This document shows, piece after piece, positions 8,615 to 62,887 of a stretch of 64,000 nt of DNA. The stretch is taken from the NCBI RefSeq assembly GCF_004010195.1, contig NC_057718.1:7794707-7858706 (forward strand). Reading direction: 5' to 3'. Within the stretch, counting starts at the first letter, position 1. Each line of letters opens with the position of its first letter. The notes beneath the pieces were generated by a model that was not told where the DNA came from, did not search any database, and saw nothing but the letters and a program-made list of their open reading frames with translations. A program made the translations under genes and the position numbers. This DNA is from Chiloscyllium plagiosum (lineage: Eukaryota).

Positions 8615-8860
8615 GGTGGGTGGCGTGGTGCAGTGGTGCTGTCACTGGGTTGGCAATCAAATGCTCCAATGTTTTGGGGGCATGGGTTCGAATCCCACCA
8701 CAACAGGTGGTTTAACATTTGAAATTCAATAAAACACTAGCAACAGTTGTTGAGTGTCACAAGAGCTGACATGGTTGATGATGAATACTCTTGAGAATAG
8801 GAAATCTATCAACTTCCAGTCCGTCCTACACATGCCTCTGAACCCACAGCAACTCAGGGA
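8615..8860 (+). mobile_element. Degenerate tRNA-derived SINE (second family) running directly into the satellite
   Basis: Box A-like GGTGCAGTGG and box B GGTTCGAATCC; the body resembles the copies at 20265-21130 and 43110-43600. Confidence 0.6.
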
Positions 8861-8869
8861 ACTTTTCAC

Positions 8870-11800
8870 AACCCTCCGAGTAGTAACCTTTTATTGCTCT
8901 CCCAGTAGTAACTTTTCCCTGCTCGCCCAGTAGTAAATTTTCACTACTCTCCCAGTGCTAACTTTCCCCTGCTGTCCCAGCAGTACCTTTGCACTGCTCT
9001 CCCAGTAGTAAGTTTTCCCTGGTCTCCCAGTAGTAACCTTTCACTACTCTCCCAGTAGTAACTTTTCCCTGCTATCCCAGTAGTAACCTTTCACTACTCT
9101 CCCAGTAGTAACTTTTCACTACTCTCCCAGTAGTAACTTTGCACTGCTCTCCCAGTAGTAACTTTTCTGTGCACTCCCAGTAGTAACTTTTCCCTGCTCT
9201 CCCAGCAGTAACTTTTCTCTGCTCTCCCAGTAGTAACCTTTCACTACTCTCGGAGTGGTAACTTTTCCCTGCTGTCCTTGCAGTAACTTTGCACTGCTCT
9301 CCCAGTAGTAATTTTTCACTGCTCTCCCAGTAGTAATTTTTCACTACTCTCCCAGTAGTAACTTTTCACTGCTCTCACAGTAGTAATTTTTCCCTGCTGT
9401 CTCAGCAGTAACTTTGCACTGCTCTCCCAGTAGCAACCTTTCCCTGCTCTCCCAGTAGTAACCTTTCACTACTCTCCCAGTAGTAACTTTTCCCTGCTAT
9501 CCCAACAGTAACCTTTCTCCGCTCTCCCAGTAGTAACTTTCTCTGCTCTCCTAGTAGTAACTTTTCACTACTCTCCCAGTAGCAACTTTTTCCTGCTCTC
9601 CCAGTAGTAACCTTTCACTACTCTCTCAGTAGTAACATTTCACTACTCTCCCAGTAATAACTTTTCCCTGCTCTCCCAGTAGTAACCTTTCACTACTCTC
9701 CCAGTAGTAACTTTGCACTGCTCTCCTAGAAGCAACTTTTCCCTGCTCTCCCAGTAGTAACCTTTCACTACTCTCCCAGTAGTAACTTTGCACTGCTCTC
9801 CTAGAAGCAACTTTTCCCTGCTCTCCCAGCAGTAACTTTGCACTACTCTCCCAGTAGTAACTTTTCCCTGCACTCCAGTAATAACTTTTCACTACTCTCC
9901 CAGCAGTAACTTTTCCCTGCTCTCCCAGTAGTAGCTGTTCTCTACTCTCCCAGTAGTAACCTTTCACTCCACTCCCAGTAGTAATCTTTTTTAATACTTC
10001 TCCCAGTAGTAATTTTTCACTACTCTCCCAGGAGTAACTTTTCTCTGCTCTCCCAGTGCTAACTTTTCCCTGCTGTCTCAGTAGTAACTTTGCACTGCTC
10101 TCCTAGAAGCAACTTTTCCCTGCTCTCCCAGTAGTAACCTTTCACTACAGTCCCAGTAGTAACTTTTCTCTGCTCTCCCAGTAGTAACCTTTCACTACTC
10201 TCCCAGTAGTAACTTTTCCCTGCTATCCCAGCAGTAACCTTTCTCCGCTCTCCCAGTAGTAACTTTCTCTGCTTTCCTAGTAGTAACTTTTCACTACTCT
10301 CCCAGTAGCAACTTTTTCCTGCTCTCTCAGTAGTAACCTTTTACTACTGTCCCAGTAGTAACTTTTCACTACTCTCCCAGTAGTAACTTTTCCTGGCTCT
10401 CCCAGTGGTAACTTTTCTCTGCTCTCCCAGCAGTAACTTTTCACTGCTCTCCCAGTTGTATATTTTCACTACTCTCCCAGTAGTAACTTTTCACTACTGT
10501 CCCAGTAGTAACTTTTCACTGCTCACCCAGTAGTACCTTTTCTCTGCTCTCCCAGTAGTAACTTTTCCCTGCTCTTCCAGTAATAACTTTTCACTACTCT
10601 CCCAGTAGTAACTATTCCCTGCTGTCCCAGCAGTAACTTTGCACTGCTCTCCCAGTATAACTTTTCCCGGCTCTCCCAGTAGTAACTTTTCTCTGCTCTC
10701 CCAGTAGTAACCTTTCACTACTCTCCCAGTAGTAACTTTTCCCTGCACTCCAGTAGTAACTTTTCACTACTCTCCCAGCAGTAACTTTTTCCTGCTCTCC
10801 CAGTAGTAGCTGTTCTCTACTCTCCCAGTAGTAACCTTTCACTCCACTCCCAGTAGTAATCTTTCACTCCACTTCCAGTAGTAATTTTTCACTGCTCTCC
10901 CAGTAGTAATTTTTCACTACTCTCCCAGTAGTAACTTTTCTCTGCTCTCCCAGTAGTAACTTTTCCCTGCTGTCTCAGCAGTAACTTTGCACTGCTCTCC
11001 TAGTAGCAACTTTTCCCTGCTCTCCCAGTAGTAACCTTTCACTACACTCCCAGTAGTAACTTTTCCCTGCTGTCCTAGCAGTAACCTTTCACTACTCTCC
11101 CAGTAGTAACTTTTCCCTGCTATCACAGCAGTAACCTTTCTCTGCTCTCCCAGTCGTAACTTTCTCTGCTCTCCTAGTAGTAACTTTTCACTACTCTCCC
11201 AGTAGCAACTTTTTCCTGCTCTCCCAGTAGTAACCTTTCACTACTCTCTCAGTAGTAACATTTCACTAATCTCCCAGTAGTAACTTTTCCTTGCTCTCCC
11301 AGTGGTAACGTTTCTCTGCTGTCCCAGCAGTAACTTTTCACTGCTCTCCCAGTAGTAACTTTTCACTGCTCTCCCAGTAGTAACCTTTCACTACTCTCCC
11401 AGTAATAACTTTTCCCTGCTCTCCCAGTAGTAACCTTTCACTACTCTCCCAGAAGTAACTTTTCTCTGCTCTCCCAGTAGTAAACTTTCATGACTCTCCC
11501 AGTAGTAACTTTTCTCTGCTCTCCCAGTAGTAACCTTTCACTACTGTCCCAGTAGTACCTTTTCCCTGCTCTACCAGAAGTAACTTTTCCTTGCACCCAC
11601 AGCAGTAATTTTTCCCTGCTCTCCCAGTAGTAACATTTCACAACTCTCCCAGTAGTAACTTGTCTGTGCACTCCCAGTAGTAACATTTCACTACTCTCCC
11701 AGTAGTAACTTTTCCCTGCTCTCCCAGTAGTAACTTTTCTCTGCTCTCCCAGTAGAAAGCTTTCATGACTCCCCCAGTCGTAACTTTTCCCTGCTGTCCT

Positions 11801-14800
11801 AGCAGTAACTTTGCACTGCTCTCCCAGTAGTAACTTTTCCCTGCTCTCCCAGTAGTAACTTTTCTCTGCTCTCCCTGTAGTAACCTTTCACTACTCTCCC
11901 AGTAGTAACTTTTCCCTGCACTCCAGTAGTAACTTTTCACGACTCTCCCAGTCGTAACTTTTCCCTGCTGTCCTAGCAGTAACTTTGCACTACTCTCCCA
12001 GTAGTAACTTTTCCCTGCACTCCAGTAATAACTTTTCACTACTCTCCCAGTAGTAACTTTTCCCTGCTCTCCTAGTAGTAGCTGTTCTCTACTCTCCCAG
12101 TAGTAACCTTTCACTACTCTCCCAGTAGTAATTTTTCACTGCTCTCCCAGTAGTAATTTTTCACTACTCTCCCAGGAGTAACATTTCTCTACTCTCCCAG
12201 TCGTAACTTTTCCCTGCTGTCCTAGCAGTAACTTTGCACTGCTCTCCCAGTAGTAACTTTTCCCTGCTCTCCTAGTAGTAAATTTTTTCTGCTCTCCCAG
12301 TAGTAACCTTTCACTACTCTCCCAGTAGTAACTTTTCCCTGCACTCCAGTAGTAACCTTTCACGACTCTCCCAGTCGTAACTTTTCCCTGCTGTCCTAGC
12401 CGTAACTTTGCACTACTCTCCCAGTAGTAACTTTTCCCTGCACTCCAGTAATAACTTTTCACTACTCTCCCAGCAGTAACTTTTCCCTGCTCTCCCAGTA
12501 GTAGCTGTTCTCTACTCTCCCAGTAGTAACCTTTCACTACTCTGCCAGTAGTAACTTTTCCCTGCTCTCCCAGTCGTAACTTTTCACTACTCTCCCAGTA
12601 GTAACTTTTCACTACTGTCCCAGTAGTAACTTTTCACTGCTCACCCAGTAGTACCTTTTCTCTGCTGTCCCAGTAGTAACTTTTCACTACTCTCCCAGTA
12701 ATAACTATTCCCTGCTGTCCCAGCAGTAACTTTGCACTGCTGTCCCAGTAGTAACTTTTCCCAGCTCTCCTTAGTAACTTTTCTCTGCTCTCCCAGTAGT
12801 AATCTTTCTCCGCTCTCCCAGTAGCAACTTTTCCTTGCTCTCCCAGTAGTAACCGTTCCCTGCTCTTCCAGTGGTAACTTTTCACTACTCTCCCAGTCGT
12901 AACCTTTCCCTGCTGTCCCAGCAGTAACTTTGCACTGCTCTCCCAGTAGTAACTTTTCACTGCTCTCCCAGTAGTAAACTTTCACTACTCTCCCAGTAGT
13001 AAGTTTTCCCTGCTCTCCCAGTAGTAACGTTTCACTACTCTCCCAGTAGTAACCTTTCCCTGCTGTCCCAGTCGTAACTTTGCACTGCTCTCCCAGTAGT
13101 AACTTTTCCCTGCTCTCCCAGTAGTAACGTTTCACTACTCTCCCAGTAGTAACCTTTCCCTGCTGTCCCAGTAGTAACTTTGCACTGCTCTCCCAGTAGT
13201 AACTTTTCTGTGCTCTCCCAGTAGTAACCTTTCTCTGCTCTCCCAGTAGTAACCTTTCACTACTCTCCCAATAGTAACTTTTCCCTGCTCTCCCAGTAGT
13301 AACCTTTCACTACTCTCCCAGTAGTAATCTTTCACTATTCTCCCAGTAGTAACTTTTCACTGCTCTCCCAGTAGTAACCTTTCCCTACTCTCCCAGTAGC
13401 AACTTTTCCTGCTATCCCAGCAGTAACCTTTCTCCGTTCTCCCAATAGTAACTTTCTCTGCTCTCCTAGTAGTAATCTTTCACTACTTTCCCAGTAGCAA
13501 CTTTTTCCTGCTCTCTCAGTAGTAACCTTTCACTACTCTCCCAGTAGTAACTTTTCACTACTCTCCCAGTAGTAACTTTTCCTTGCTCTCCCAGTAGTAC
13601 CTTTTCTTTGCTTTCCCAGTAGTAACTTTTCTCTGCTCTCCCAGTAGTAACCTTTCACTACACTCCCAGTAGTAACTTTTCCCTGCTCTCCCAGTAGTAA
13701 CCTTTCACTACACTCCCAGTAGTAACTTTTCCCTGCTGTCCCAGCAGTAACTTTTCGCTGTACTCCCAGTAGTAACTTTTCACTACTCTCACCGTAGTAA
13801 CTTTTCTCTGCTCTCCTAGTAGTAACCTTTTACTATTCTCCCAGTAGTAATCTTTCACTACTCTCCGAGTAGTAACTTTTCACTGCTCTCCCAGTAGTAA
13901 CTTTACCCTGCTGACCCAGCAGTAACTTTGCTCTGCTCTCCCAGTAGTCACCTTTCACTACTCTTCCAGTAGGAACGTTTCACTACTCTCCCAGTAGTAA
14001 CCTTTCACCAATCTCCCAGTAGTGACTTTTCTCTGCTCTCCCAGTAGTAACATTTTACTACTCTCCCAGTAGTAACTGCTCCCTGCTGACCCAGCAGTAA
14101 CATTGCACTGCTCTCTCAGTAGTACTTTTTCACTACTCTCCCAGTAGTAACTTTTCACTACTCTCCCAGTCGTAACTTTTCCCTGCTGACCCAGCAGTAA
14201 CTTTGCATTGCACTCCCAGCAGTAACATTTCCCTTCTGTCCCAGTAGTAACGTTTCCCTGCTATCTCAGTAGTAACTTTGCACTGCTGTCACAGCAGTAA
14301 CTTTGCACTGCTCTCCCAGTAGTAACCTTTCACTATTCTCCCAGTAGTAATCTTTCACTACTCTCCCAGTAGTAACTTTTCACTGCTCTCCCAGTAGTAA
14401 CTTTTCCCTGCTGTCCCAGCAGTAACTTTGCACTGCTCTCCCAGTAGTAACCTTTCACTACTCTTCCAGTAGTAACGTTTCACTACTCTCCCAGTAGTAA
14501 CCATTCACCAATCTCCCAGTAGTAACTTTTCTCTGCTCTCCCAGTAGTAACATTTTACTACTCTCCCAGTAGTAACTGCTCCCTGCTGACCCAGCAGTAA
14601 CATTGCACTGCTCTCTCAGTAGTACTTTTTCACTACTCTCCCAGTAGCAACTTTTCACTACTCTCCCAGTCGTAACGTTTCCCTGCTGACCCAGCAGTAA
14701 CTTTGCATTGCACTCCCAGCAGTAACATTTCCCTTCTGTCCCAGTAGTAACGTTTCCCTGCTATCTCAGTTGTAACTTTGCACTGCTGTCCCAGCAGTAA

Positions 14801-16647
14801 CTTTGCACTGCTCTCCCAGTAGTAACCTTTCACTACTCTCCCAGTAGTAACCTTTCACTACTCTCCCAGTAGTAGCTTTTCACTACTCTCCCAGTAGTAA
14901 CTTTTCCTTGCTCTCCCAGTAGTACCTTTTCTCTGCTTTCCCAGTAGTAACTTTTCTCTGCTCTCCCAGTAGTAACCTTTCACTACACTCCCAGTAGTAA
15001 CTTTTCCCTGCTCTCCCAGTAGTAACCTTTCACTACACTTCCAGTAGTAACGTTTCACTACTCTCCCAGTAGTAACCTTTCACCAATCTCCCAGTAGTAA
15101 CTTTTCTCTGGTCTCCCAGTAGTAACATTTTACTACTCTCCCAGTAGTAACTGCTCCCTGCTGACCCAGCAGTAACATTGCACTGCTCTCTCAGTAGTAC
15201 TTTTTCACTACTCTCCCAGTAGTAACTTTTCACTACTCTCCCAGTCGTAACTTTTCCCTGCTGACCCAGCAGTAACTTTGCATTGCACTCCCAGCAGTAA
15301 CATTTCCCTTCTGTCCCAGTAGTAACGTTTCCCTGCTATCTCAGTAGTAACTTTGCACTGCTGTCCCAGCAGTAACTTTGCACTGCTCTCCCAGTAGTCA
15401 CCTTTCACTACTCTCCCAGTAGTAATCTTTCACTACTCTCCCAGTAGTAACTTTTCACTGCTCTCCCTGTAGTAACTTTTCCCTGCTGTCCCAGCAGTAA
15501 CTTTGCACTGCTCTCCCAGTAGTAACCTTTCACTATTCTTCCAGTAGTAACTTTTCACTACTCTCCCAGTAGTAACCTTTCACCAATCTCCCAGTAGTAA
15601 CTTTTCTCTGCTCTCCCAGTAGTAACGTTTCACTACTCTCCCAGCAGTAACTTTTCCCTGCTCTCCCAGTAGTAACTTTTCACTACTCTCCCAGTAGTCA
15701 CTTTTCCCTGCTGTCCCAGTAGTAACTTTTCACTACTCTCCCAGTAGTCACTTTTCCCTGCTGACCCAGCAGTAACTTTGCATTGTTCTCCCAGTAGTAA
15801 CGTTTCCCTGCTCTCCCAGCAGTAACATTTCCCTGCTCTCCCATTAGTAACTTTTCCCTGCTATCCCAGTAGTAACTTTTCACTACTCTCCCAGTAGTAG
15901 CTTTTCCCTGCTGTCCCAATAGTCACATTTTACTACTCTCCCAGTGGTAACTGTTCCCTGCTGACCCAGCAGTAACATTGCACTGCTCTCCCAGTAGTAA
16001 CTTTTCACTACTCTCCCAGTAGTAACTTTTCCCTGCTCTCCCAGTAGTAACTTTTCACTACTCTCCCAGTTGTAACTTTTCCCTGCTGACTCAGCAGTAA
16101 CTTTGCATTGCACTCCCAGTTGTAACATTTCCCTTCTCTCCTCGTAGTAACTTTTCCCTGCTATCCCAGTAATAACTTTGCACTGCTGTCCCAGCAGTAA
16201 CTTTGCACTGCTCTCCCAGTTATAACTTTTCCCTGCTCTCCCCGTAGTAACTTTGCACTGCTGTCCCAGCAGTAACTTTGCACTGCTCTCCCAGTAGTAA
16301 CTTTTCACTACTCTCCCAGTAGTAACTTTTCCCTGCTCTCCCAGCAGTAACATTTCCCTGCTCTCCCAGTAGTAACTTTTCCCTGCTCTCCCAGTAGTAA
16401 CTTTGCACTGCTCTCCCAGTAGCAGTATTTTACTACTCTCCCAGTAGCAGCATTTTATTACTCTCCCAGTATTAACTTTTCCCTGCTGACCCAGCAGTAA
16501 CTTTGCACTGCTCTCCCAGTAGTAACTTTTCACTACTCTCCCAGTAGTAACTTTTCACTACTCTCCCAGTTGTAACTTTTCCCTGCTGACCCAGCAGTAA
16601 CTTTGCACTGCTCTCCCAGCAGTAATGTTTCCCTTCTCTCCCAGTAG
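8870..16647. repeat. 25-bp tandem satellite (~310 units), consensus CTCTCCCAGTAGTAACTTTTC(CCTG/ACTA), truncated by an assembly gap
   Basis: Continuous 25-bp periodicity read directly over ~7.8 kb. Occasional 23-bp units. All minus-strand ORFs here are repeat translations. Confidence 0.97.
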
Positions 16648-17147
16648 NNNNNNNNNNNNNNNNNNNNNNNNNNNNNNNNNNNNNNNNNNNNNNNNNNNNN
16701 NNNNNNNNNNNNNNNNNNNNNNNNNNNNNNNNNNNNNNNNNNNNNNNNNNNNNNNNNNNNNNNNNNNNNNNNNNNNNNNNNNNNNNNNNNNNNNNNNNNN
16801 NNNNNNNNNNNNNNNNNNNNNNNNNNNNNNNNNNNNNNNNNNNNNNNNNNNNNNNNNNNNNNNNNNNNNNNNNNNNNNNNNNNNNNNNNNNNNNNNNNNN
16901 NNNNNNNNNNNNNNNNNNNNNNNNNNNNNNNNNNNNNNNNNNNNNNNNNNNNNNNNNNNNNNNNNNNNNNNNNNNNNNNNNNNNNNNNNNNNNNNNNNNN
17001 NNNNNNNNNNNNNNNNNNNNNNNNNNNNNNNNNNNNNNNNNNNNNNNNNNNNNNNNNNNNNNNNNNNNNNNNNNNNNNNNNNNNNNNNNNNNNNNNNNNN
17101 NNNNNNNNNNNNNNNNNNNNNNNNNNNNNNNNNNNNNNNNNNNNNNN
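16648..17147. other. Assembly gap (500 N)
   Basis: Run of N; the round length suggests a scaffolding placeholder. Confidence 0.99.
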
Positions 17148-18215
17148 CGTCAGTGCTGAGGGTGTGCATCATTGTCAGAGGGTCAATACTGCGGGTGTGC
17201 CGCACTGTCAGAGCGTCAGTGCTGAGGTAGTGCAGCAATGTTGGAGGTTCAGTATTGAGGGACTGCTGCTCTTTTGGAGAGTCAGTGCTGAAGGAGTGCT
17301 GCACTGTCAGAGGGTCAGTAATGAGGAAGTGCCGCACTGTTTGAGGGTCAGTACTGCAGGTGTGCTGCACTGTCAGAGTGTCAGTGCTGAGTGTGTGCAT
17401 CATTGTCAGAGGATCAATACTGAGGGAGGGCTGCACTGTCCGAGGGTCAGCACTGAGGGTGTGCTGCACTGTCAGAGGGCCAGCACTGAGGGTGTGCTGC
17501 ACTGTCAGAGGGTCAGCACTGAGGGTGTGCTGCACTGTCAGAGGGTCAGCACTGAGGGAGTGCAGCACTGATGGGGGGTCAGCACTGAGGGAGGGCAGCA
17601 CTGTCAGAGGGTCAGCACTGAGGGAGTGCAGCACTGATGGGGGGTCAGCACTGAGGGAGGGCAGCACTGTTGGAGGGTCAGCACTGAGGGAGTGCAGCAC
17701 TGCCGGAGGGTCAGTACTGTGGAACCGCTGCACTTGCTGGGCTAGAACTGATGAGTGCTGCACTGTCGCTGGTTCAGTGCTGAGGGAGGGCCACACTGGC
17801 GGAGGGTCAGTACTGAGAGTGTGTTGCACTGTCAGAGGGTCAGTACTGAGGGGGTGCAGCACTGTCAGAGGGTCAGCACTGAGGGAATGCAGCACTGTCA
17901 GAGGGTCAGTGTTGAGGGAGTGCAGCACTGTCGGAGGGTCAGTACTGAGGCAGTGCCGCTCTGTCGGAGGGTCAGTGCTGAGGGAGTGCCGCAATGTCAG
18001 AGGGTCAGTGCTGAGGGACTGCAGCAATGTCGGAGTGTCAGTACTGAGGGGATGCAGTACTGTCAAAGGATCAGTACTGAGGGATTGCTGCTCTGTCAGA
18101 GGGTCAGTGCTGAGGGAGTGTAGCACTGTCAGAGGGTCAAAACTGACGAGTGCTGTACTGTTGCTGGTCCAGTTTGAGGGATTGTTGCACTGTCGGAGGG
18201 CCAGTGCTGAGGGAA
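17148..18215. repeat. 33-bp minisatellite (GAGGGTCAGTACTGAGGGAGTGCTGCACTGTCA), ~32 units
   Basis: 33-bp periodicity; the long ORFs on both strands show 11-aa periodicity (e.g. LSADPLTVQHT). Confidence 0.95.
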
Positions 18216-18829
18216 TGCTGGTTGTCAAGAAAAGTGCTACATAAATACAAGTGCGACTTTGTTGTACTCAAAATTAATTAAATTAAGTTGCATCTTCTTG
18301 TGCAAAGAAATGCAAAGTAATGCAGAACAATCGAAAGAGTGATTCAAAGACTGGAGCTTGAGAAAGAATGAATAAAAATGAGATGATGAATAGGTTGAGA
18401 AGAAAGTAAAACTGATCAGAAACGAGCAGGATTTGGAGTTTGGATAGCTGGGCAATGGACTAAGAAATGGAAAGGGGTAATGACAAGTGTGAAGATATTT
18501 CGGCTGTGTTTCCACAGCTGCTGTTAGCTTGTGATGTCTCATTGTCTGAAAGACCATCACGGGGGATGTAGAGGCTAAATCTACCACCAGGTGGCAGTGA
18601 CAGGAGGGTTTCCGCCCTACAGGAGAAAATGGTGAATGTGCTCTCTCCAGGATAATGAGATGTTCATTTAAAACCAGGGCAAGAAGTTGAGAAGGAATTA
18701 ATGGAGTTAAATGGATTCTACTGACAGAAGAGATCACAAATTTAATGTAATTGACCAATGAACCAATTGGGAAGAATTGTTTTTACGCAACACGTTTTTA
18801 GGGAAGGTACTTTCTGAACAGACAGATTC

Positions 18830-26399: not shown

Positions 26400-28400
26400 A
26401 CAAAATGAAAGAGAAATAATGTATCTACGTTTGCTGATGATACAATATTTGGTGGGAACGTAAGCTGTGAGGAGGACACAAATCAGCTAAAACAGGTAAA
26501 CACCAGGCAAGTGAATGGGCAACAATACAGCAGATAGAGAATAATATAGGAATTAAGTCTGAGTTTTGTTTTGTTTTGGGAATAAGAAGGGAAAATTAAA
26601 ATTGGTTTTAGAAGGCATGAAACATAAATGTTGATGCTCAGAGAGAAGAGCAAAGAGACCTTGTGGTGCAGGTGCATGGTTCCTTGAAAGTGGAGTCCCA
26701 GGTAGACAGAATGGTGAGGAAGGCGTGTGGTACATATGCTTTAATTGGTCAGAACAATGGTTATAGAAGTGGAGATGTCATATTGTGCCTGCATAGGACA
26801 TTGGTGAGCACACATTTGGAACACTGTGTTCAATTCTGGTCTCCTTGCTGTAGGAAAGATGTTGTTAAACTTGAAAGGGCTCAGATAAAGGATGTTGCTG
26901 GGGTTGGAAGGTTTGAGCTATAGGGAGAGGCTGAATAGGCTGGGGCTGTTTTCCCTGGAGCATTGGAGGTTGAGGGGTGACGTTATAGAGGTTTATAAAA
27001 TCATGAGGGGCACGAATGGCATAAATACACAAAGTCTTCTTCTTGGGTTGAGGGAGCCCAGAACAAGAAGGCATAGGTTTAAGGTGAGAGGGGAAAGATA
27101 TAAAAGAGACCTAAGGGGCAACGTTTTCACACAGAGGGTGGTGCATGTGTGGAATGAGCTGCCAGATAAAGTGGTGGATGCTGGTACAATGACAGCATTT
27201 AAAAGGCATCTGATGGGGATATGAATAGGAAGGGTTTAGAGGGATATGGGCCAAATGCTGGCAAATGGGAGTGAAGGGTTTGTTTCCAGGCTGTATTTCT
27301 CTAAGACTATGACTCTGAGTGTATTTACTCATACAAGGGACACTACCAGCTAATGTGCAAGTACAGCAGGTAGTTTCTGCAAGGGAACATTGAGTTCAAA
27401 AATATCCCTGCAATTGAATAAAGCATTGATGAGTATCATGTGCTGTTTGGTCTCTGTGCTTAAGAAAGAGTATATTTGTAGGAGAGGTCTTTCAAAGAGT
27501 GGTTCCTAAAATGCTAAGATTATTCTATGATCAGAGGCTCGGTAAAATGAGTTTACATTCTCTGCACTTCAGAAGAATGAGGGTGACCTGACTGACACAT
27601 ACAGGATCCTGAAGGAGTTTGACAGGATGATCTTTCTCTGGGTGGGGAACCGAGAGCTCAACAGCACAGGCTCAGAAGAAGGGAGTGATCATTCAGTACT
27701 GAGATGAGGAGAAATTTATTCATTCAAAGGCCTGTGAAGCTGTGACACTCGCAACAGCAGAGAGCTGTGAATGCTCCGTTATAGAGGACATTTAAAAGTC
27801 TGATCGATAAGTTCTTGATTTCTCAGGGTATAGAGGAATACAGGGACTGGGAAGGAAAAGGAAAGTTGATGCACAAGGTTAGCCATAAGAACATAAGAAC
27901 TAGGAGCAGGAGTAGGCCATGAGGCCCTTCGAGCCTGCTCCGCCATTCAATAAGATCATGGCTGATCTTTTCATGCCTCAGCTCCACTGACCCACCCTCT
28001 CACCATAACCTTTAATTCCTTTACTGTTCAAAAAACTATTAATCTTTGCCTTAAAAACATTAAACGAAGGTAGCCTCAACAACTTCACTGGGCAGGGAAT
28101 TCCACAGGTTCACAGACCTTTGGGTGAAGAAATTCCTCCTCAATTCAGTCCTAAATCTGCTCCCCCTTATTTTGAGGCTATGGCCCCTAGTTCTAGTTTC
28201 ACCCACAAGTAGAAACAACCTCCCTGCTTCTATCTGATCCGTTCACATCATAACTTTATGTGTTGCAATAAGATGCCCCCCCCATTCTTATTGAAAGGTG
28301 GTGCAGGTCTGAGGGACTGAATGCTTCTATTTCTTCCATTTATATGTTCTCAACTGGCCTGGAAATGATGGGCTGAATGGTCTCTTCCAATGCAATATAA
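26400..28400 (+). mobile_element. Nested CR1/HER1 LINE fragments (younger 3' end at ~26655-27318 inside an older copy)
   Basis: tttgctgatgataca (FADDT) at ~26430. ORFs 26663-27224 encode LEHCVQFWSP..GLEGLSYRERLNRLGLFSLE..RGDVIEVYKIMRG..RGNVFTQRVVHVWNELP. Confidence 0.85.
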
Positions 28401-33012: not shown

Positions 33013-33073
33013 ATGAATTTCTTCACCCTCTCCGTCCTGGTGCTAACACTCCAGCCGCCTCTCACTCCAGAAG
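33013..33073 (+). CDS. edn4: Preproendothelin exon 1 (signal peptide MNFFTLSVLVLTLQPPLTPE-G)
   Basis: ATG with G at -3, in-frame upstream stop TAA at 32917-32919, hydrophobic core FFTLSVLVLTL and consensus donor AAG|gtaagt. The phase 1 junction joins exon 2 in frame, as in vertebrate EDN genes. Confidence 0.8.
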
Positions 33074-33899: not shown

Positions 33900-34620
33900 T
33901 TCTTCCTAATTCACTCACGAGGTGTCAGAGCCAATGATAAGCCCAACATTGGTTGCCTATTGCTTTGAGAAGGTGGTGGTGAGCTGCCTTCTTGAATTCC
34001 TGTACTGTAGATACACCCACAATTCTGTTAGGGAGGGAGTCTTGACCCAGCCACACTGAAGGAATGGGGATATATTTCCAAGTCAGGATGATAAGTGGCA
34101 TGGAGGGGATCTTGCATGTGGTGATGTTCCCATCTATCTGCTGTCCGTTCCCTTACAGATGATAGAGGATATGGATTTGCTGTATGCAGACCCTTTCAGA
34201 TGGTACACATTGTGCATCTCTAGTTGAGGGAATGGATGTTGAGGGAACTGGATTGGATGCCAATGAAGTGGGCAGCTTGGTATTGAGCTTCTTGAGTGTT
34301 GTTGAAGTTGCAATCATTCAGAAAAGTGGACAATATAACATCACACCATCATTACCATCTTCCAGCTGGTGGACTGGCTTTGGGGAGTCAGTAGGGTGAG
34401 TTAATCACACCAGGTTCCTAGCCTCTCACCAGTTTTCATGGCCACAGTGTTTACATGGCTAATCCATTTGCATTTCTGGTCAATGGTAATCCCAAGGATG
34501 CTGATAGAGAGAGGTTCAGTGATGGGAATGTCAATGGGAGATGGATAGATTCTGTTTTATTGGAGAGGCCCATTGCATGGCACACGTATGGCACGAATAT
34601 TCATTGACACCTAGCAACCC
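33900..34620 (-). mobile_element. Degenerate CR1-type LINE/SINE 3' region
   Basis: Homologous to 39405-39940 and to the tail of the second SINE family. Confidence 0.6.
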
Positions 34621-34627
34621 ATGGTTG

Positions 34628-35788
34628 CTTATTTCAGTAAGGCATTTGATTAGATTCCCCATGGTAAGCTCATTCAGAAAGTTAGGAGGAATGGGATACA
34701 GGGAAATTAAGCTGTGTGGGTTTAAAATTAGCTGGCTGAAAGAAGACAGAATGGTAGTGGATGGAAAGTATTCCACTTGGAGGGCGCTGACCAGTGGTGT
34801 CCTGCAGATATCGGTTCTTGGGCCTCTGCTCTTTGCAGTTTTTATAAATGACTTGGATGAAGAAGTGGAAGGGTGGGTTAGTAAGTTTGCCGATGACACA
34901 ACGGTCAATGGTGTTGTAGATAGTGTCAATAGTGTAGATAGTGTCGAGGGCTGTTGCAGGCTACAACATGACATTGACAGGATGCAGAGCTGGGCTGAAA
35001 AGTGGCAGATGGAGTTCAACCTGGATAAATGCAAAGTGATTCATTTTGGAAGGTCAAATTTGAATGCTGAATACAGGGTTAATGACAGGATTCTTGGCAG
35101 TGTGGAGGAACAGCGGGATCTTGGAGTCCATGTATATATATCCCTCAAAGTAGCCACCCAAATTGATAGGGTTGTTAAGAACGTGTATGGTGTTTTGGCT
35201 TTCATTAACAGTGGGATTGAGTTTAAGAGCTATGAGGTTTTGCTACCTGGTTACATCACGTTTGGAATATTATATCCAATTTTGGTTGCCTCATTATAGG
35301 AACGATGTAGCTGCTTTCGAGAGCATGCACAGGAGATTTACCAGGATGCTGCCTGAATTGGAGAGCTTGTCTTATGAAGTGAGGTTAAGTGAGCTAGGGC
35401 TTTTCATACTGGAGAGAAGGAAGAAAGGCGACTTGATAGAGGTGTACAAGGTAATGAGAGGCACAGAGAGAGTAGATAGCCAGAGACCTTTCCCCAGGGC
35501 AGAAATGGATGTCACGAGGGGTTGTAATTTTAAGGTGATTGGAGGAAGGTGTAGGGATGATGTCAGAGGTAGAGTCTTTACGCAGAGAGTGGTGGGGGCA
35601 TGGAATGTACTGCCAGCGGTGGGAGTAGAGTCAGAGATATTAGGGACATCTAAGTGACTGCTGGACAAGAACATGGACAGAAGTAAATTGAGGGGGGTGT
35701 AGGTTAAGTTGATCTTAGACTAAGACAAATGCTCGGGACAACATCGTGGGCCAAAGGGCCTGTACTGTGCTGTTCTATGTACTGTGTA
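34628..35788 (+). mobile_element. 5'-truncated CR1/HER1 LINE (RT core to 3' UTR), frameshifted
   Basis: [51 protein letters not shown], followed by the C-terminal CR1 motifs. Confidence 0.9.
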
Positions 35789-44772: not shown

Positions 44773-45539
44773 TCCCGTTCCTGGTGAAAAAAATAATTTT
44801 AAGACTCTCTGACTCTGTCTTTGGTGGTGGTGTAAATCAGAATGAGCAGATAGCTGCCTCAAATAAGTATTTTGTGTAACATTTATAGTTTTTGCTACCA
44901 CTTTGTTCAGTTTCTATCTCTTAGGAAGACATTGAATGTTTGGTGTGAGCACCACATTCCATGTCCCAAATGATATGGTTTAGCTTATTAGATAATGGGC
45001 TAGGCTCAAGGGGCTGATTGGTCTACTCTTGATCCTAATTTGTGCTTATGTATGTTCACTACTCTTAATTGAAGCACTAATGTATATTGTTGGTAATGTA
45101 TGGTGGTACAGCAGTTATCTTAATGGACTAATAGAGCGGAAGGTTGAACCTGGAGTCCTGAATTCAAATTTAAAATGACAATTGGGAATTAGTTTCTTGT
45201 TGTTAAAGAAATTTGGGAATAAAAATCTGAAATTGATTGGGGTGACCATGAAACTGCCAGACTATATGTGAAAAGTTGCCCGGTCACTTTAGCGAAGGAG
45301 ATCTGTGTGCATTAACCTTTCCGGTCTATGTGTGACTCCAGATCCACAGCAAAGTGGCTGACTCTTAACTGCCCTGTGAGATCACCCAGCAAGCTGCATG
45401 GCCATATTGGGATACGCAAACGATGTTGGCCATAAGTCAGCTGTAGCTGGATGCTGTGAATGAACATGGACGAAATTGAAATGAAAGCTCCCAAGTCTAT
45501 TTTAAATCCTCCCTCATGCTTTATTTTTTGTTGCCACAG

Positions 45540-45714
45540 GGAGTTCTGAGCCGCTTGCTGGAGCCTTGGCCGGATCAGAGATAGACAGCGATCAGGGACT
45601 AAGGGAGGTCCACTCATCCCTACACAGAGAGAAACGTTGTTCCTGCAGCAACATGCAAGACACAGAGTGTGTTTACTTCTGCCATGTAGGCATTGTATGG
45701 GTCAACACACCAGG
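45540..45714 (+). CDS. edn4: Preproendothelin exon 2; mature endothelin peptide at 45638-45700
   Basis: Acceptor tttattttttgttgccacag|G. Translation [59 protein letters not shown], with Cys1/3/11/15, Trp21 and the ECE site W-V. Donor GG|gtaagc, phase 2. The endothelin identity is firm; the edn4 paralog assignment is inferred. Confidence 0.97.
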
Positions 45715-53003: not shown

Positions 53004-54030
53004 ATAGTAACAAAGAGGATTGATGAGGGCAGAATGGTAGATGTGATCTATATGGACTACACAGTAAGGCATTCGACAAGGTTCCCCATTGGAGACTGGT
53101 TAGCAAGGTTAGATCGCACGGAATACAGGGAGAACTAGTCATTTGGATACAGAACTGACTCAAAGGTAGAAGATAGAGGGTGGTGGTGGAGGGTTGTTTT
53201 TCAGACTGGAGGCCTGTGACCAGTGGAGTGCCACAAGGATCGGTGCTGGGTCCTCTACTTTTTGTTATTTACATAAATGATTTGGATGCGAGCATAAGAA
53301 GTACAGTTAGTAAGTTTGCAGATGACACCAAAATTGGAGGTNNNNNNNNNNNNNNNNNNNNNNNNNNNNNNNNNNNNNNNNNNNNNNNNNNNNNNNNNNN
53401 NNNNNNNNNNNNNNNNNNNNNNNNNNNNNNNNNNNNNNNNNNNNNNNNNNNNNNNNNNNNNNNNNNNNNNNNNNNNNNNNNNNNNNNNNNNNNNNNNNNN
53501 NNNNNNNNNNNNNNNNNNNNNNNNNNNNNNNNNNNNNNNNNNNNNNNNNNNNNNNNNNNNNNTTACAAGGATATTGCCAGGATTGGAGGATCTGAGCTAT
53601 AGGGAGAGGCTGAACAGGCTGGGGCTGTTTTCCCTGGAGCGTCGGAGGCTGAGGGGTGACCTTATAGAGGTTTACAAAATTATGAGGGGCATGGATAGGG
53701 TAAATAGGCAAAGTCTTTTCCCTGGGGTGGGGGAGTCCAGAACTAGAAGGCATAGGTTTTAGGTGAGAGGGGAAAGATATAAAAGGGACCTAAGGGGCAA
53801 CCTTTTCACAGAGAGGGTGGTACATGTCTGGAATGAGCTGTCAGAGGAAGTGGTGGAGACTGGTACAATTACAACATTTAAGAGGCACTTGGATGGGTAT
53901 ATGAATAGGAAGGGTTTGGAGGGATATCGGCCGGGTGCTGGCAGGTGAGACTGGATCGGGTTGGGATATCTGGTTGGCATGGACGAGTTGGACTGAAGGG
54001 TCTGTTTCCGTGGTGTACATCTCTATGACT
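53004..54030 (+). mobile_element. 5'-truncated CR1/HER1 LINE spanning an assembly gap (53342-53562)
   Basis: [38 protein letters not shown] and LGLFSLERRRLRGDLIEVYKIMRG. Confidence 0.9.
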
Positions 54031-61503: not shown

Positions 61504-61632
61504 ACAGGTTGTTCCATACGGGTTGGGGAATGCCGCGAAACTTCGGAAGCGGGAACTGACTCGATGTTTCTGCACCAAGGGCAAGGATGCAGAGTGCAGG
61601 ACCTTCTGCCAGTCACCAAGCAGAGTGCCACG
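61504..61632 (+). CDS. edn4: Preproendothelin exon 3 (big-ET C-terminus and endothelin-like domain at 61565-61609)
   Basis: Branch-like ctaac at ~61479 and acceptor ttttcattgtcacag|A. Translation (G)QVVPYGLGNAAKLRKRELTRCFCTKGKDAECRTFCQSPSRVP(R). Donor CG|gtatgt; phases 2/2. Confidence 0.95.
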
Positions 61633-61786
61633 GTATGTTTCAGAATCAAGAACAGTCAACTCAATCAGGCTGCAGTGGGCTGTGCACTGATCAAAGCTGT
61701 GGGAAACAATGCACTCTCACCCCACCCAGATTATCGCAAAACCCTAGTTCACTACTTGTTAGTGCTGGAGAGTCTTAAAGTGGGTA

Positions 61787-62725
61787 CACACACACACACA
61801 TACATACACACACTCTCTCCCACATCCATGATTTTGCACGCATACATACACACAGACTCGCACACACAGACTCGCACACACAGTCACACATGCATGCACA
61901 CACATGTGCATACACACACACTCATGCATACATACACACGCACTCACACTCTCACACATCCACGCATTTACACATTCTCTCACACACATACATACACACA
62001 CACTCTCCCTCACAGGTATATATGCACAAATTCTCTCTCTCTCACTCACACACACACACACACACACACTCTCACGCATGCACGTATATACAAACTCACA
62101 CGCATACATACACACATGCACACACATACTGTCTCACACATGCATATATACACATACTCACACGTGCAGCCATACACACACTCACACATACACACACTCT
62201 CTCTCTGTCTCTCTCTCACACAAATACTGTTTCTATCACACACATACACACACTCTCTCACTCACGCATACATGTGCACATATTCACACACTCTCACATG
62301 CATATATACACTCTCACACGCATGCACACACACTCACACGTGCATACGCACTCTCTCAAACGCATACATACACACGCTCTCTCTCACCTACATGCATACA
62401 CTCTCACATGCACAAACGTATACACACAGTCTCTCACGTGCATACATACACACATACCTGCTCACATGTGCATACACACACTCGCACACATGCATACATA
62501 CACAGACTCTCACAAGTACATACACACACACACTATTTCACATGCGCGCGCGCGCACACTCATATGTGCAAGCATACATATACACTCTCACACACATGCA
62601 CACACCTGTGTGCTTACATGCACATACACTCATGCGTGTGCACACACATACACATGCACACACGCACTGTCTCTCAAATATGCACATTCTCTGTCTCACA
62701 CACGTATGGACATGCACACACAAGC
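61787..62725. repeat. Degenerate (CA)n/(CT)n microsatellite, ~940 bp, in intron 3
   Basis: Low-complexity CA-rich tract that generates spurious His/Thr-rich ORFs. Confidence 0.95.
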
Positions 62726-62887
62726 ACCAGAACTCTGCAACAAACATAGTCCATTCAGCTCACTCTAACCTCATGTACTGTTCAGCTGGTTCCCATCATT
62801 TATTGACTTTTAGGGGCTCATGATCAGAGTTATCGTGTGAAAACAGTATATCAAATAACTGTAAGCAATGTTCAGATTCTTTATCAG

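Follow-up and report, generated by a model that had tools for sequence, protein, structure and literature searches.

A probable endothelin-4 gene in the bamboo shark Chiloscyllium plagiosum

We analysed a 64,000-nucleotide stretch of the genome of the bamboo shark Chiloscyllium plagiosum (NC_057718.1, positions 7,794,707 to 7,858,706 of the forward strand; hereafter the window) that carries an endothelin gene. The 21-residue mature peptide encoded on the plus strand at 45638-45700 very probably belongs to the endothelin-4 (Edn4) gene, which would be the fourth member of the endothelin quartet produced by the two early vertebrate genome duplications and would have been lost in tetrapods. Four paralogy groups of endothelin ligands have been recognized, and in the accessible part of Square et al. 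2016 (PMC5039696) edn4 is described as retained only in some ray-finned fishes. A preliminary description of the window treated the peptide as an endothelin-1 (ET-1)-like ligand with four unusual substitutions (Thr9, Val17, Gly18 and Val20). That framing is not borne out, as both the gene order and the phylogeny place the gene as Edn4 and not as an ortholog of ET-1 or ET-2.

The translation of 45638-45700 is identical to the peptide given in the preliminary description, and a residue count agrees with its statement that the peptide contains no Lys or Arg. The opposite strand of the same interval encodes no endothelin-like product. The peptide has the Cys1-x-Cys3 ... Cys11-x3-Cys15 framework of the endothelins along with His16 and the C-terminal Trp21, carries Thr9, Val17, Gly18 and Val20, and ends in HVGIVW. 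It is encoded by coding exon 2 (45540..45714, plus strand), which is bounded by the acceptor cacag/GG and the donor GG/gtaagc and contains the propeptide, a furin site, the mature peptide and the first 5 residues of the big-endothelin tail. The exon 2 translation matches the Pfam family PF00322 (Endothelin) along the entire profile (positions 1-29 of 29) with 72.9 bits and an E-value of 1.4e-20. The curated cut-off for this family is 20.5 bits, and the match is far beyond chance.

The orthologs of Hemiscyllium (98% identical) and Stegostoma were mapped onto the window and its right flank with tblastn, which yielded a preproendothelin gene of four coding exons, three of them inside the window, all intact and with canonical splice sites. 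Exon 1, placed by tblastn at 33013..33073 (plus strand), holds the start codon and a hydrophobic N-terminus (MNFFTLSVLVLTLQPPLTPE) and closes with the initial base of a Gly codon before the donor G/gtaagt; judged by eye, the N-terminus is taken to be a signal peptide. Within the exon 2 translation, the dibasic furin-type proprotein-convertase site REKR (45626..45637, plus strand) directly precedes Cys1, and the translated sequence after Trp21 begins the big-endothelin tail with VNTPG (45701..45714, plus strand), making Trp21/Val22 the expected endothelin-converting-enzyme site. Exon 3 (61504..61632, plus strand, by tblastn) is 100% identical to the Hemiscyllium ortholog across 43 residues, and its translation on its own has no Pfam match. 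It encodes the rest of the tail (QVVPYGLGNAAKL), a predicted RKR cleavage site (61544-61552, plus strand), the residues ELTR and an endothelin-like second peptide, CFCTKGKDAECRTFC (61565-61609, plus strand). The last exon, exon 4, maps by orthology to about 790-903 bases past the end of the window. The layout is that of the endothelin precursors, with the hydrophobic N-terminus (by eye), REKR, W/VNTPG, RKR and the second peptide all found.

Proprotein-convertase cleavage of preproendothelins is established (PMC5039696, in the portion available). By analogy, the bamboo shark precursor would enter the secretory pathway and be cut after REKR and RKR to give a big-Edn4 of approximately 39 residues. 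Endothelin-converting enzyme would then cut between Trp21 and Val22, as it does in big ET-1, and release a 21-mer that would form the 1-15 and 3-11 disulfides and insert its C-terminal H-V-G-I-V-W into an endothelin receptor.

Contigs from four runs cover exon 2. Runs X9, X15 and X17 each contain one contig that spans exactly 45538-45714 and runs over into both neighbouring exons, taking in the final 30 bases of exon 1 and the initial 30 bases of exon 3. These runs come from three studies with three organism codes, and their kinds are not on record as RNA; the contigs join exons 1, 2 and 3 and therefore represent spliced transcripts. Run X3, from a fourth and independent study, contains a genomic contig across all 501 bases compared. 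Only two differences occur among the four runs, a synonymous change in an Ala codon in X3 (45571 C>T) and a Gln7Glu change in X17 (45656 C>G), and codons 9, 17, 18 and 20 are unaltered in all of them. The gene is intact, transcribed and spliced, and the concern of the preliminary description that the unusual residues might be assembly errors is answered by the agreement of the four runs at these codons.

The genome contains exactly four endothelin exon 2 copies, located on the sequences labelled C9 (which contains the window), C27, C29 and C20. The C27 copy is of the Edn2 type, the C29 copy is of the Edn1 type with a mature peptide identical to that of Pristis 'endothelin-1', and the C20 copy is of the ET-3 type. 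On the same strand as the window gene, and upstream of its exon 2 by approximately 120 kb, there is a 1662-aa open reading frame (ORF) that is 100% identical to the NCBI entry 'transcription factor HIVEP2a [Chiloscyllium plagiosum]'. Among the best 120 matches to this ORF, all named proteins (unnamed rows aside) are HIVEP2, HIVEP2a, HIVEP2-like or ZEP2, and neither HIVEP1 nor HIVEP3 occurs as a name. Additionally, C9 carries RPEL (Phactr-type) exons at 5.10-5.15 Mb directly followed by LTV1 at 5.18 Mb, an arrangement that presumably corresponds to the human 6q24 PHACTR2-LTV1 pair. Two other markers were tried. Peroxin-3 (PF04882), as a marker of 6q24, had no match here and none in the control genomes either, and guanylin (PF02058) is located on C34, apart from all four endothelin loci, and is uninformative as a marker.

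A genome search with the HIVEP2 ORF showed that the other three endothelin genes each have a large HIVEP-type ORF directly upstream and in the same orientation. These lie at 19.866-19.871 Mb on C27 (endothelin exon at 19.750 Mb), at 2.2135-2.2185 Mb on C29 (endothelin exon at 1.996 Mb) and at 1.0335 Mb on C20 (endothelin exon at 1.0568 Mb). In an embedding look-up the C27 ORF was closest to HIVEP3 clusters (0.99, 0.97, 0.97) and the C20 ORF to ZNF831 clusters (0.98 three times). The result is a four-way set of gene pairs consisting of HIVEP2 with the window gene, HIVEP3 with Edn2, ZNF831 with Edn3, and a third HIVEP-type gene, HIVEP1 by elimination, with Edn1. In this set the window gene is the fourth paralog. 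An Edn4-type protein and HIVEP2 are also found on equal-sized contigs in Acipenser ruthenus, Scleropages, Brachyhypopomus and Mobula.

When the exon translation served as the query, 12 longer proteins were returned out of 28 candidates, all 12 of them chondrichthyan. They represent 11 species from seven shark genera, four genera of rays and skates, and the chimaera Callorhinchus. Thr9, Val17, Gly18 and Val20 are kept in all 12, so that the lack of conservation that the preliminary description had considered for Thr9 and Gly18 is not what is observed. The window peptide is matched exactly in eight, and the other four deviate only at position 4 or 7 (Thr4 in two Callorhinchus records, Arg4 in Amblyraja and Glu7 in Hemiscyllium). 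An alignment was built from nine of these relatives, omitting P0010 for an internal duplication, P0013 as an exon-skipping isoform and P0015 as a second Callorhinchus record. No variation is seen in 19 of the 21 mature-peptide columns of this alignment or in the tail VNTPGQ.VPYGLG, although over the whole protein the rows are only 49-77% identical to the first one. A nearly invariant ligand and invariant processing sites in proteins that otherwise differ to this degree reflect strong purifying selection on both. As for the omitted records, the stingray Hemitrygon akajei protein P0010 (194 aa) contains an internal tandem duplication of the RKRELRRC... endothelin-like peptide segment, and in isoform X2 of Mobula birostris (P0013) the exon 3 segment is skipped and VNTPG runs straight into the C-terminal exon.

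A profile of the nine chondrichthyan proteins identified 254 proteins from 4518 candidates, and the best 120 of the 254 were analysed. The best match outside the cartilaginous fishes is the gar protein P0136 (UniProt 'Endothelin 4', E 5.7e-38), followed by sturgeons, a lungfish and many teleosts. An R-x-[KR]-R site precedes the mature peptide in all 120. Of the 120, 109 carry Gly18, and in 108 of these it is accompanied by Val20. The C-terminus has the form H-[I/V]-G-[I/V]-[V/I]-W in 109 of the 120, as HIGIVW (95), HVGIVW (12, all chondrichthyan), HIGIIW (one, from lungfish) or HVGVVW (one, from bichir), and the HVGIVW of the window is thus of the Edn4 type. The other 11, most of them named endothelin-2, have the ending HLDIIW. 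Among the 109 proteins with Gly18, position 17 is occupied by Ile (96) or Val (13), and position 9 by Lys (83), Thr (12, the chondrichthyans), Arg (seven), Ile (four), Met (two) or Gln (one).

This distribution suggests that Gly18, Val20 and Ile or Val at position 17 are an ancestral Edn4 signature common to ray-finned fishes, bichir and lungfish, and that Val17, Gly18 and Val20 predate the split of cartilaginous and bony fishes. Of the four residues only Thr9 is peculiar to cartilaginous fishes, as is the stretch Ser4-Asn5-Met6-Gln7. The four departures from ET-1 listed in the preliminary description are real, but three of them are therefore normal for an Edn4 (109 of the best 120 matches have Gly18) and only Thr9 is special.

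The shark and gar proteins share the Cys framework, the H-[I/V]-G-I-V-W ending, the REKR site, the VNTPGQVVPYG tail, a second endothelin-like Cys motif and their group in the tree. They differ in positions 4-9, which are S-N-M-Q-D-T in the shark, V-N-L-K-D-K in gar and E-N-[L/Q]-K-D-K in teleosts. Furthermore, the shark peptide has Val17 and not Ile17, and it is without any basic residue. With ET-1 and ET-2 the shark peptide shares the length of 21 residues, Cys1, 3, 11 and 15, Asp8, Glu10, the core ECVYFCH, Trp21, the precursor layout and the processing sites. However, those peptides end in H-L-D-I-I-W and their genes lie next to HIVEP1 and HIVEP3, whereas the shark peptide lacks Asp18.

An exhaustive profile search over 1.84 billion representatives gave 394 matches, and 128 new representatives were examined. 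The motif is present in 127 of these 128, and 118 of the 127 have Asp18. Position 9 in the 118 Asp18 endothelins is K (59), S (31), T (8), R (5), N (4), E (4), M (3), Y (3) or Q (1), and is therefore variable outside mammals. The preliminary description had called Lys9, Leu17, Asp18 and Ile20 invariant in mammalian ET-1, ET-2 and ET-3. For endothelins and sarafotoxins this agrees with a review (PMC8859281), which in the text available gives His16, Asp18, Ile20 and Trp21 as invariant and Lys9 as conserved except in sarafotoxin S6c (SRTX-6c), but it fails for vertebrate endothelins at large. The window peptide keeps His16 and Trp21 and departs from the consensus with Gly for Asp18, Val for Ile20 and Thr for Lys9. 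The consensus was drawn without Edn4 sequences.

Two observations concern the Edn2 proteins. The Edn2-type paralog of the bamboo shark (L002/L004, G000:C27:19749790-19749852, minus strand) has Lys17, and the ending HKDIIW also occurs in a skate (P0244) and an electric ray (P0251). Leu17 is found in 116 of the 118 Asp18 endothelins examined, and chondrichthyan Edn2 would thus seem to have an unusual residue of its own at the receptor-facing position 17. In the snake Pseudonaja textilis, 'Endothelin 2' (P0288; also P0291) has Gly18 in an otherwise Edn2-type peptide, which is an independent change from Asp18 to Gly.

The phylogeny agrees with the gene order. The chondrichthyan HVGIVW proteins form a clade with support of 97/98. 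The bony-fish proteins ending in H-I-G-I-V-W form another (98/93) that contains the gar 'Endothelin 4' and branches in the order of the species, as lungfish, bichir, sturgeon, gar and teleosts. These two clades unite with a single long-branched hagfish row at 90/89, and removing the 21 mature-peptide columns still yields this 25-tip group, at 71/94. The HKDIIW proteins of skate and ray belong to the Edn2 side of the tree. The basal position in the bony-fish Edn4 clade is taken by the protein P0138 of the lungfish Protopterus annectens, which is named 'endothelin-1-like' and has CSCENVRDIECVYFCHIGIIW. The hagfish row is the Myxine glutinosa protein P0317, named 'endothelin-2-like', which has Val17, Gly18 and an HVGIIW end. 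Its grouping with the Edn4 clade hints that the Gly18 form could predate the jawed vertebrates, although its branch is very long (1.67-1.98) and its placement unsure.

Several points weigh against the assignment to Edn4. The tree is based on short sequences and on 61 rows chosen from approximately 248 endothelin proteins to span the peptide types, and its group labels were mostly assigned from the peptide motif, apart from source-named proteins. Support for the branch joining the chondrichthyan and bony-fish clades is moderate and not decisive, and the branch is not starred. The HIVEP3 and ZNF831 labels are embedding leads and not alignments, and the neighbour on C29 is taken as HIVEP1 by elimination only. 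The name 'Endothelin 4' itself comes from one source label, that of gar, and the source names in the Edn4 clade are inconsistent; they include endothelin-1, endothelin-2, endothelin-2-like, endothelin-3-like, si:ch211-202p1.5, uncharacterized and, for the zebrafish protein P0232, 'Endothelin-3a'. The use of the HIVEP2/PHACTR2 region to define Edn4 goes back to its first description, reportedly that of Braasch et al. in 2009; the window gene does lie in the HIVEP2 region. The identity of zebrafish P0232 was pursued with the edn3a guide sequence in the accessible text of Spiewak et al. 2018 (PMC6161917). Its six-frame peptides occur in no collected protein, which neither confirms nor excludes that identity.

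Two other accounts of the gene can be set beside Edn4. It could be a fast-evolving chondrichthyan ortholog of endothelin-2 (or endothelin-1) whose four odd residues arose in the cartilaginous-fish lineage. Names of this kind are carried by most of the 12 relatives, which are labelled endothelin-2 (five, including an isoform X1), endothelin-2-like (one), endothelin-1 (four, including an isoform X2), uncharacterized (one) and Endothelin-like toxin domain-containing (one), and the Edn4 group is on the same side of the tree as the Edn2-type rows (82/85). However, the same genome holds a separate Edn2-type gene next to the HIVEP3-like ORF on C27 and an Edn1-type gene on C29, and Amblyraja has both an Edn4-type and an Edn2-type protein, each named 'endothelin-2-like'. 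Gly18 and Val20 are common to 97 bony-fish proteins and are therefore not of shark-lineage origin, and the window gene adjoins HIVEP2. For an endothelin-2, a HIVEP3 neighbour and an H-L-D-I-I-W end would be expected, and neither is found. We consider an ortholog of endothelin-1 or endothelin-2 improbable, as it is already largely refuted by the four-gene quartet, and conclude that databases mislabel chondrichthyan Edn4 as endothelin-1 or endothelin-2. Nothing was found in favour of a pseudogene, an open frame arising by chance or an artefact of assembly, though the window does hold N gaps and many repeat fragments. This account is refuted by the four intact exons with canonical splice sites, the spliced transcripts in three runs with an agreeing independent genomic contig, and the orthologs in 11 other species, and we give it virtually no credence.

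A further proposal, compatible with the assignment to Edn4 and not exclusive of it, concerns what the peptide does. The preliminary description suggested that a peptide with no basic residue and no Asp18 may have a shifted receptor selectivity or act as a weak or biased agonist. In a broader form, Edn4 would be a pharmacologically distinct class (subtype-selective, partial, biased or antagonist-like) for want of Asp18, and the chondrichthyan form would be shifted further by the loss of Lys9. According to the available portion of a study of the endothelin receptor ETA (PMC9992518), Asp18 of ET-1 forms a salt bridge with Arg326 (position 6.55). Arg326 contacts Asp351 (7.35) as well, and ET-1 activity drops strongly when either receptor residue is mutated to alanine; Ile19 and Ile20 occupy a hydrophobic cavity and Trp21 touches Lys3.33 and Trp6.48. 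For ETB, the accessible text of PMC10533325 describes a network of Asp18 and the terminal carboxylate with K182, K273, R343 and D368. Gly18 cannot make the salt bridge to Arg6.55, and a Gly18 ligand must therefore bind somewhat differently, probably relying only on its hydrophobic C-terminus and on the carboxylate of Trp21. The ETB-selective agonist IRL-1620 is characterized by Glu9, which SRTX-6c has as well (PMC8859281, in the part available). These two ligands resemble the shark peptide in having the endothelin fold without Lys9, but they have Glu9 and Asp18 where it has Thr9 and Gly18, and the shark peptide is the product of an endogenous hormone gene and not a venom toxin.

That the peptide hardly varies among sharks, rays and chimaera speaks for a function that is specific and constrained. 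ET-1 analogues altered at positions 18 and 19 are reported to be receptor antagonists; our literature search on position-18 analogues yielded nothing useful. Against a distinct pharmacology stands the receptor side. We identified three receptor exons encoding transmembrane helix 6 (TM6) in the genome, two of the ETB type on C15 and C6 with CWLPLHLSRIL, and one on C1 with CWFPLHLSKLL. For the C1 exon (L034, G000:C1:150850808-150850945, minus strand), which reads CWFPLHLSKLLKK, the best solved-structure match is human ETA. Position 6.55 is Arg in the two ETB-type exons (L032 and L033) and Lys in the ETA-type exon, compared with Arg326 in human ETA. All three shark receptors thus have a basic residue here, and no receptor-side compensation for Gly18 is seen at 6.55 in the three TM6 exons, positions 3.33, 5.38 and 7.35 not having been looked at. 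Gly18 in the snake Edn2 also suggests that the change is tolerable. The literature searched contains no assay of any Edn4 peptide and no mention of the motifs HVGIVW, HIGIVW and CHVGIV or of the name ch211-202p1.5. We regard a distinct pharmacology as possible, though on balance doubtful.

The remainder of the window contains several repeats. Between HIVEP2 and exon 1 of Edn4, a 7.8-kb minisatellite at 8860-16647 consists of 312 copies of a 25-bp unit with 81% matches. A run of N separates this minisatellite from an array of 33-bp units at 17149-18218. The strong GC skew at 8860-18218 is due to these minisatellite arrays. Directly after exon 3, at 61700-62800, there is a long low-complexity tract with His/Thr/Cys-rich open frames on both strands, and fragments of retroelement reverse transcriptase are scattered across the window (for example at 754-1200, 26889-27224, 34523-35657 and 53177-53762).

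The assignment of this gene to Edn4 corrects a misreading, in that the peptide would be not a mutated ET-1 but the cartilaginous-fish copy of the fourth endothelin. It also widens the range of Edn4 beyond the ray-finned fishes to sharks, rays and chimaera, and apparently to a lungfish. The question of how a Gly18 ligand binds then applies to every Edn4 and not just to the shark peptide. An entire class of natural endothelins is without the Asp18 that has been shown to pair with Arg6.55 of the receptor. As a tentative suggestion, Edn4 may be an ancient class with a pharmacology of its own, for which the chondrichthyan form would be the cleanest natural probe and perhaps a ligand dedicated to one of the two Ednrb-type receptors.

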